Origin: Candidatus Nomurabacteria bacterium
GTDB lineage: Bacteria > Patescibacteriota > Patescibacteriia > HK-STAS-PATE-3
Reading direction: 5' to 3'
Length of the DNA: 64,000 nucleotides
Assembly (NCBI GenBank): GCA_023898465.1
Contig: CP060223.1
Coordinates: 1 to 64,000 of the forward strand
This document shows positions 32,832-33,386 of this stretch, piece after piece. Made by a program: the position numbers and the translations under genes. The notes below the pieces were generated by a model that saw nothing but the letters and a program-made list of their open reading frames with translations, did not search any database and was not told the DNA's origin. Position 1 is the first letter of the stretch, and each line of letters opens with the position of its first letter.

Positions 32832-32909
32832 AGTAGGACTTATCCGCATTTCATCCGCAGAAAAAGAAAAGCGCTGACTTTAGCGAAAAAGAGAAGAGAC
32901 TTGTAAACG

Positions 32910-32938
32910 TTGACAAGTGTCTTTTTCTGTGCTATACT
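32910..32938 (+). promoter_or_regulatory. consensus sigma70 promoter (TTGACA-17-TATACT)
   Basis: Perfect -35 hexamer and a near-perfect -10 at 17-nt spacing. No ORF follows it. Confidence 0.5.
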
Positions 32939-32944
32939 CCTCTT

Positions 32945-33300
32945 GTAACGTACTTTTTAGACCACTTTATACCTCGAACAGTCAAGAAATTTGGCCGATT
33001 GCAAGCCAGGCGACCAGACTTCTCGACTATTCGTCAAAGGACATCCTAGGTCCTGTTTGAAAAGGATATAAAAACAAAAAGGTATACCCTAACGCCGCTG
33101 GTGTCGGGGACATACCAGAAGAGTGGTCGAGTACAAGCTCTCTACACAAACTAGGAAAGTAGTCAGCACATACGATCTTAGTGAAGATCGTCATCACTGC
33201 CCTATGGGCGGTAGATAACGTCCCGAGATCGTACGAAAGGGCCTCCGCCCATTCAACACTACGAATCGGGGCCGAGAGGCCTTTTTCTTTTCCCAAAAAA
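32945..33300 (+). ncRNA. candidate ncRNA of about 350 nt (identity unknown)
   Basis: It lies between the consensus promoter and the hairpin ggggccgagaggcc plus tttttctttt. No plus-strand ORF of meaningful length. Several internal inverted repeats. Confidence 0.3.
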
Positions 33301-33386
33301 GTTTGTAGCATTACGCTTGTCTTTTACGGGGAGCTAGAATAATATGGCTATGTGGCGATCAAAAAGGTGATCGCTATTTTTCATAG

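Follow-up and report, generated by a model that had tools for sequence, protein, structure and literature searches.

A candidate family of structured non-coding RNA encoded near pnp in Patescibacteria

Introduction

Between a cytidylate-kinase-like (cmk) gene and a transposase-like open reading frame (ORF) in Candidatus Nomurabacteria bacterium (GenBank assembly GCA_023898465.1, contig CP060223.1) lies a stretch of DNA in which a consensus-like promoter is followed, some 350 nucleotides later, by a terminator-like hairpin. Is this stretch a gene, and if so, what does it make? We addressed these questions within positions 1 to 64,000 of the contig's forward strand (hereafter the window, to which all coordinates refer unless another contig is named), starting from a first-pass annotation that had proposed an unidentified housekeeping RNA, a transposon-associated guide-like RNA, or a long 5′ leader once belonging to the transposase. 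The explanation that we favor, with moderate confidence, is that a gene in its own right, at ~32945–33293 (+), encodes a ~350-nt non-coding RNA of an uncatalogued family found in a clade of Patescibacteria, and that this RNA works in trans as part of a ribonucleoprotein. The first of the annotation's three proposals is thus the one that gained support, from an RNA that is conserved, strongly structured and, as predicted from sequence, separately transcribed, and that covaries across at least 13 lineages.

Results

Predicted boundaries and coding potential of the transcription unit

The 5′ end of the unit is defined by the following element:

32910–32938 (+): sigma-70-type promoter, TTGACA (32910–32915), 17-nt spacer, TATACT (32933–32938), 11 of 12 consensus matches

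This promoter, already singled out in the first-pass annotation, also has a TG at 32930–32931, which makes it an extended −10 element (TGcTATACT, 32930–32938), and is the top-scoring promoter-like site between 31500 and 35500. Because promoter-like sites are no more numerous in that interval than shuffles predict, a single one proves little; the window promoter is credible because it is conserved in the relatives described below. Its position predicts a transcription start at ~32945. At the other end, the terminator that had been noted at about 33270–33300 was borne out as a hairpin at 33268–33283 followed by a T tract, and this hairpin is the tip of a longer, G+C-rich one (~33240–33281) that runs into UUUUUCUUUU, so that the unit would end near 33293. 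The RNA delimited by these sequence-predicted ends (~32945–33293, +) is ~350 nt long, and lengths over the family range from 350 to 430 nt.

The claim that no plus-strand ORF occupies the interval needs a small amendment, in that ORFs of 47 and 53 amino acids are present, both with GTG starts; neither is conserved in relatives. The minus-strand 94-amino-acid ORF, rightly doubted, spans 33027–33311, has no Pfam match, and is likewise not conserved. When the subtypes of the family were compared, stop-free segments differed in frame and strand and gave no cross-subtype BLASTP matches. The locus encodes no conserved peptide.

Relatives of the RNA in other Patescibacteria

Judged by its PNPase relatives, the organism of the window belongs among the Patescibacteria/CPR. 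Searching 80 PNPase loci with the window RNA by nhmmer returned no match except the source contig. The relatives are too divergent for a plain sequence search, and synteny via cmk was needed to find them: beside cmk homologues on several contigs (L082, L083–L085, L098 and L101) lay a gap of 600–700 nt that contained a similar RNA behind the same promoter. A scan of metagenomes with a DNA pattern made of two conserved motifs added L091, L092 and L096, along with four chance matches, and a covariance-model search added L002 (40.9–98.5 bits). Divergent members were spotted by eye in the pnp–lspA gaps of remoter PNPase loci (L003, L004, L005, L006 and L011, with L004 from Komeilibacteria and L011 from Buchananbacteria). 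Altogether we recovered 12 further distinct homologues on Patescibacteria contigs, including Komeilibacteria and Buchananbacteria metagenome-assembled genomes (MAGs), which with the window makes 13 members. The conservation and covariation check that the annotation had suggested thus gave a positive answer, with at least 13 lineages conserving the RNA and extensive covariation among them.

The latest covariance model (R3) gives both the window and L006 92 bits (E ~1e-12 for the window), scores that follow by construction because both sequences are within its training alignment (A10). An independent measure comes from model R2, for which only type B sequences were used and which gives the window 40.2 bits (E = 6.4e-8) and L006 25.1 bits. 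Among the divergent members, R3 scores L003 at 28 bits (E = 0.05) and L004 at 20.5 bits (E = 0.8), and returns nothing for L005 or L011.

The members share more than the RNA itself. A promoter scan of 12 of them found a promoter of the TTGACA-17-TGnTATACT/TATAAT type in 11 (L082 carries TTGTCA), and in L011 we read TTGACC-17-TATAAT by eye. An extended hairpin plus U tract terminates the RNA in all members, and pnp is found upstream, in the same orientation, in each member with a known upstream flank (the 2-kb contig of L091 does not reach that far). Covariance-model scans found one copy of the RNA in the 64-kb window. Cmk relatives in a smc–cmk–rplS arrangement (L086–L089, L097, L099, L100 and L102) have tRNA genes in the nearby gaps and no member of the family there, and a scan of IMG/VR viral contigs with the family pattern gave no match.

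Three peculiarities of individual relatives deserve mention. The L002 contig (JAIWBS010000016.1) carries the label of a Pirellulales MAG but has a Patescibacteria-type pnp–cmk–DUF3352–RNA–dksA–lspA locus and the PNPase closest to that of the window (63%); it is probably mis-binned. RNA subtype and cmk are discordant, in that the window shares 76.5% cmk identity with L082 but has an RNA of the L092 subtype (L092 cmk, 47.6% identical), which hints at replacement of the RNA gene, rapid divergence, or loss of the DUF3352-like gene. Finally, in L083 (3724–4852; also L084 and L085) and in this relative only, reverse-transcriptase-like gene fragments with faint RVT_1 matches lie between pnp and cmk, probably the remains of a decayed retroelement.

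A shared fold built around a long-range helix

The window region folds far better than its shuffles (z = −5.9; −5.9 to −8.1 over the sequences so compared). Common to the members is a junction of three or four helices closed by a long-range helix (P1), within which lie P3, an optional P4, an A-rich single strand and P5; immediately 3′ of P1 comes P6, followed by P7 and P8. In the window the parts are as follows:

32945–33021 (+): variable 5′ domain, hairpins not sequence-conserved between subtypes
33022–33032 (+): P1 5′ strand (segment c), CUCGACUAUUC, pairs with 33121–33131
33039–33053 (+): P3 hairpin, GGAC-AUCCUAG-GUCC; loop CCUAG (33045–33049) kisses loop L6
33054–33080 (+): single-stranded junction, near-invariant A-rich tract ending ..AUAAAAACAAAAA, then the GG of P5
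33081–33116 (+): P5 hairpin, GGUAU...AUACC, supported by the fold and the covariation count
33121–33131 (+): P1 3′ strand (segment d), GAGUGGUCGAG; c–d duplex, −14.9 kcal/mol
33137–33167 (+): P6 hairpin; loop CUAGG (33151–33155) pairs with CCUAG of L3
33172–33233, approximate (+): P7, long irregular hairpin, length and sequence varying between members
33240–33293 (+): P8, extended terminator hairpin (33240–33281) plus U tract (33282–33293)

Single-sequence folding of the window's 5′ domain pairs 32960–32968 and 32975–32988 with later segments. The relatives have two-tier hairpins homologous to P8 that end in GCGCCUUUUCUUUU. The conserved core amounts to only ~150 nt, and within it the A-rich single strand (17–30 nt, AAACAAAAACAAAAAGG-like) is present in all members and unpaired in every predicted fold.

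An earlier structural model (R1), with an outer helix a–d and a hairpin b–c taken from single-sequence minimum-free-energy folds, was rejected, as L002 and subtype D cannot form its helices; all aligned members conserve instead the long-range helix c–d, which is P1. With the corrected structure (R2), the window scored 40.2 bits, up from 28.8. MAFFT alignments across subtypes misplaced P3 and P6, and manual and covariance-model-based alignments were used in their place. A reading of UUCGAA as a T-loop was dropped, its bases belonging to P1.

Compensatory changes support P1 and a kissing-loop contact

The pairing is preserved through extensive sequence change. The P1 strands of other members differ widely from those of the window, as in UUCAUACUGUUC/GAACGGUGUGAA, UUCUUAACUAUUC/GAAUGGUUAAGAA, UUUUCUCUACUAUUC/GAAUGGUGGAGAAAA and CCAUUUUACUAU/AUGGUAAAAUGG. 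The contact between L3 and L6, a loop–loop (kissing) interaction of 5–6 bp, is CCUAG/CUAGG in the window and elsewhere takes the forms CCGAC/GUCGG, CCGGU/GCCGG, GCUGGG/CCCAGC, CUUGAC/GUCAAG, CUUGAU/AUCAAG, CCUGAC/GUCAGG and GUGGC/GCCAC. Counts from the manual alignment, which holds 12 members for P1 and 13 for the kissing pairing (a cell being one pair in one member), were:

P1: 160 of 163 cells canonical, compensatory changes in 10 of 15 pairs
P3: 65 of 65 cells canonical, compensatory changes in 6 of 7 pairs
P6: 78 of 85 cells canonical, compensatory changes in 8 of 9 pairs
L3–L6 kissing: 71 of 71 cells canonical, compensatory changes in 6 of 6 pairs

When the L6 partners were shuffled among the ten distinct variants, pairing averaged 72%, and none of 20000 trials reached 100%. 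A separate count by a tool, on a model-derived alignment of nine members (in which the kissing pairs are not modelled), found 93.6% of cells paired, compared with 75.0 ± 1.3 in shuffles and 40–47% when the partners were slid, and changes on both sides in 36 of 49 pairs, compared with 16 in shuffles. By helix, 99.1% of P1 cells were paired (both sides changed in 8 of 12 pairs), as were 90.4% of P5 cells (12 of 15 pairs) and all of those in P6. Because G·U pairs, which make up 22 of 124 P1 pairs, are compatible with the plus strand only, the RNA would be transcribed from that strand.

An alternative pairing in two subtypes

Members of subtypes B and C have a 5′ segment (b) that duplicates the P1 3′ strand and can therefore pair with c in place of d. 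This b–c duplex (for example at 7319–7333 in L083 and 4555–4571 in L002, with equivalents in L082, L091, L096 and L098) is predicted at −13 to −18 kcal/mol, with z = −3.9 to −5.8, and is mutually exclusive with c–d. The window shows no b–c complementarity above chance (z = −0.5), on which ground a conformational switch in the window RNA was rejected, and the complementarity is likewise absent in L092 and subtype D. No antiterminator alternative to P8 was seen.

Comparison with catalogued RNA families

At gathering scores, the 4,227 families of Rfam 15 matched only tRNAs in the window. Relaxing the threshold to E ≤ 10 over 32700–33500 brought nothing meaningful, including no match to HEARO, IS605-type RNAs or Intron_gpI; six other members had no match at E ≤ 1, and ARAGORN found no transfer-messenger RNA (tmRNA) in the window, L082 or L083. 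These negatives, the outcome of the Rfam/Infernal scan that the first-pass annotation had recommended for the region, agree with its own failure to make out by eye the signatures of RNase P RNA, tmRNA, signal recognition particle (SRP) RNA or 6S RNA.

Bacterial RNase P RNA has universal segments that form P4, a long-range pseudoknot, with a GGAAAGUCC-like 5′ strand and an ACAGAA...GGCUUA-like 3′ strand. Such segments are absent from the alignments of our members, the RNaseP_bact_a and RNaseP_bact_b models went unmatched (E ≤ 10 for the window, E ≤ 1 for the others), and the long-range helix of the new RNA is, unlike P4, a simple nested P1. An A-rich tract with a possible tag frame after it raised the idea of a tmRNA; this was rejected because the frames are not conserved, a tRNA-like domain is lacking, and the 3′ end is a terminator hairpin with its U tract. 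Also rejected were 6S RNA and Ms1 (no Rfam match, and a covariation-supported fold in which several helices meet at a junction and a kissing loop forms, in contrast to the rod and large central bubble of those RNAs) and SRP RNA (no Rfam match, and no domain IV hairpin). Group I introns inside tRNA genes have been described for Patescibacteria (PMC13011429); the new RNA has no tRNA halves at its ends, no Intron_gpI match at E ≤ 10 and the wrong helix order, and this identity too was rejected. A search of the literature on non-coding RNAs of Patescibacteria and the Candidate Phyla Radiation (CPR), incomplete in coverage, turned up no description of such an RNA. We rate the RNA a new family, novelty here meaning that Rfam 15 holds no match and that we found no published description.

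Gene neighborhood and the adjacent transposase-like ORF

In the window the genes run rpsO, a NYN gene, pnp, the cmk-like gene, the RNA, and a Y1_Tnp ORF without a start codon, beyond which the minus strand carries tRNA-Lys and tRNA-Arg, HU, YmdB and RNase Y. The nearest features are:

32259–32831: cytidylate-kinase-like (cmk) gene, upstream neighbor of the RNA
33393–33932 (+): Y1_Tnp (IS200/RAYT-like) ORF, no start codon before 33552
34285–34518 (−): tRNA-Lys and tRNA-Arg

Directly downstream of the RNA, on its strand, 11 of the 13 members have (dksA-like)–lspA–comM: lspA follows the RNA in most relatives, sometimes after a gene for a DksA/TraR-type zinc finger, and comM comes next. Several of these downstream genes have promoter-like sites of their own after the RNA terminator (TTGTAA-16-TATACT in L083, TTGTAA-16-TATAAT in L091, TTGACA-17-TAAGAT in L002 and TTGACA-17-TATAAT in L011). 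By this reasoning the RNA would be a separate transcription unit, having its own promoter and terminator and being followed by genes with theirs. The two remaining members have different downstream genes, namely the Y1_Tnp remnant in the window and a secreted-protein gene in L092. The upstream neighbor protein is DUF3352-like or without a Pfam match, and the downstream one is a DksA/TraR zinc finger; both were set aside, neither being a constant partner of the RNA.

Is the RNA linked to the transposase? Only 2 of 13 lineages, the window and L083–L085 (2.2 kb downstream), have a Y1_Tnp gene no more than a few kb from the RNA; the two proteins share only 24% identity, and no TnpB or IscB was found near the RNA. 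The co-occurrence with a RAYT-type transposase that the first-pass annotation had asked about is thus confined to these two. Its suggestion of a transposon-associated guide-like RNA fares poorly against these counts and the syntenic site downstream of pnp, and that of a long transposase leader against the strong terminator and the unrelated downstream genes of the relatives (lspA, dksA-like and secreted-protein genes, several self-promoted). With Y1_Tnp linkage rare, viral contigs negative, a single copy in the window and differing downstream genes, both ideas are unsupported, and the RNA gene is not tied to the adjacent transposase-like gene.

We made several further observations at these loci. 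The Y1_Tnp frame in the window is open from a stop at 33390–33392 and has no ATG, GTG or TTG before 33552, leaving ~50 N-terminal residues of the domain without a start codon; the HUH motif (PDHVHIL) appears intact, as does the C-terminal part, and the ORF is either a pseudogene or a user of an unusual start codon. Between the RNA terminator and this frame, at 33352–33377 (+), lies a second terminator-like hairpin (GTGGCGATC...GATCGCTAT plus a T run). Genes of RNA metabolism cluster around the locus (29985–37461 in the window, and in relatives), with rpsO, the NYN-domain protein gene and pnp upstream in all relatives and, in the window, YmdB and RNase Y downstream of the RNA on the minus strand. 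In L092 (2040–2190), a second consensus promoter (TTGACA-17-TATAAT) directly after the RNA terminator precedes ~100 nt and a hairpin with T tract, perhaps encoding a small RNA or forming a leader; the secreted-protein gene starts at 2266.

Discussion

What might an RNA with these properties do? The consensus extended −10 promoter and strong terminator suggest a constitutive, stable, trans-acting RNA, presumably made in abundance. We propose that it serves as the RNA component of a ribonucleoprotein, in which a rigid core of junction and kissing loop would display the A-rich strand, and perhaps conserved junction bases, as a platform for protein binding. PNPase is, speculatively, the most obvious candidate partner because pnp is the sole constant neighbor, and it might bind through its KH and S1 domains, which have affinity for A-rich single strands.

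Functional RNAs of this general kind offer partial parallels. Like 6S RNA/Ms1, CsrB, CrcZ and Y RNA, the new RNA is a stand-alone gene with a strong promoter of constitutive type and a terminator. With CrcZ and ligands of the Hfq distal face it shares an exposed, repeated A-rich (ARN-like) single strand; it differs from this group in having one A-rich tract only and no GGA repeats, and does not form the rod and central bubble seen in 6S RNA/Ms1. In the window the tract can be read as AAC AAA AAC AAA AAG and the RNA finishes in a U tract, as a class II Hfq-type sRNA, with its (ARN)n tract and terminator U tail, would. Bacterial Y RNA works with PNPase (and Ro), and the gene for the new RNA neighbors pnp, whereas the tRNA-like module of Y RNA is lacking and no Ro (TROVE) gene lies nearby. 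Compared with the raiA motif, ROOL, GOLLD, OLE and HEARO, the new RNA is alike in being an independent, lineage-restricted transcript of several hundred nucleotides with an elaborate fold and tertiary contacts; it differs in its helix layout, in having no sequence or structure homology to them in permissive Rfam searches, and in being found in Patescibacteria and tied to the neighborhood of pnp. A bolder reading, on which we would not wager though it deserves serious thought, is that it represents a large structured RNA class specific to the CPR/Patescibacteria in a role filled by no known family, either as an adaptor or regulator of RNA turnover centered on PNPase, functionally analogous to Y RNA, or as a ribozyme or an RNA that self-assembles through L3–L6.

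Several considerations weigh against a trans-acting ribonucleoprotein RNA conserved across all 13 members. The case for a protein partner is speculative, drawn from two things read in sequence, the pnp synteny and the exposed A-rich strand, and synteny inside one clade may be mere inherited gene order. Four members (L003, L004, L005 and L011) are weak or undetected by the covariance models and owe their membership to position, promoter, motifs and pairing in the manual alignment, which was itself chosen partly to maximize pairing. The competition between b–c and P1 in subtypes B and C, moreover, hints at a switch as opposed to a static scaffold.

That last point bears on a cis-acting leader or riboswitch-like switch, in which the junction would be the sensor and P6–P8 the expression platform controlling read-through into dksA-like, lspA and comM genes. 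The same-strand position upstream of these genes in 11 of 13 members, the terminator at the 3′ end, and the mutually exclusive pairings of subtypes B and C (z = −3.9 to −5.8) fit such a switch. So does the architecture: cobalamin riboswitches combine a multi-helix junction with a kissing contact to a hairpin on its 3′ side, and the new RNA, too, has a junction, closed by P1, in which one hairpin loop base-pairs with that of a hairpin located after P1. The new RNA nevertheless has no B12 box, matches neither RF00174 or its variants nor any other riboswitch family in Rfam, and has a long A-rich junction strand; it leads no consistent class of regulated gene (the window and L092 differ), the lspA or dksA-like genes are self-promoted after the terminator in L083, L091, L002 and L011, no antiterminator of P8 was seen, and neither the window nor subtype D has the b–c alternative. 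We consider a leader unlikely. Quite improbable, in our estimate, is a new ribozyme, or an RNA that assembles with itself by L3–L6 pairing between molecules. Multimeric large bacterial RNAs have been reported, and the size of 350–430 nt, the covariation-supported tertiary fold with its junction and loop–loop contact, the highly conserved single-stranded segments, and the capacity of L3–L6 to form equally in trans would all suit such an RNA. Against it stand a conserved core of just ~150 nt and the lack of any identifiable cleavage site, splice junction or substrate; the L3–L6 sequences, for their part, read the same for pairing within and between molecules.

An extremely divergent universal RNA (RNase P RNA, 6S RNA, tmRNA or SRP RNA) missed by the Rfam models would account for a size near that of RNase P RNA, for the strong, housekeeping-style promoter, and for Rfam having detected none of these elsewhere in the 64-kb window, and Patescibacteria are themselves divergent. 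The helix order P1–P3–(P4)–P5–P1′–P6 with its L3–L6 kiss is nevertheless unlike the architectures of RNase P, 6S and SRP RNAs, the universally conserved RNase P segments and any tRNA-like domain or tag reading frame are lacking, and even permissive thresholds (E ≤ 10 for the window, E ≤ 1 for six other members) gave no match, which makes this identity very unlikely. To a mobile-element RNA, whether guide- or omega-like or a leader of the adjacent RAYT/IS200-like Y1 transposase, we give almost no credence. The new RNA resembles the omega and guide RNAs of IS200/IS605 insertion sequences (IS) in being structured, a few hundred nucleotides long and adjacent to a Y1 ORF in the window, and a Y1_Tnp gene also lies 2.2 kb downstream of it in L083–L085. 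It differs in that 11 of 13 lineages have no Y1_Tnp, TnpB or IscB near it, and in that it is not bounded by IS ends. It is present once in the window, occupies a fixed, syntenic chromosomal position, is separated from the transposase ORF by a terminator, and matches neither IMG/VR contigs nor the HEARO and IS605-type families of Rfam.

Returning to the trans-acting RNA that we favor, its interest lies partly in the organisms that keep it. Most Patescibacteria are uncultured, their genomes are tiny and streamlined, and very little is known of their non-coding RNAs. The retention in such genomes of a 350–430-nt gene with a consensus promoter, an intricate fold that covaries and a constant location next to pnp likely reflects an important role. 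Bacterial RNAs of comparable size and folding complexity have in the past proved to be ribozymes, riboswitch-like sensors or the cores of ribonucleoproteins. With a structure model, a search model and targets for compensatory mutation (P1 and L3–L6) now in hand, the function of this family is directly testable.

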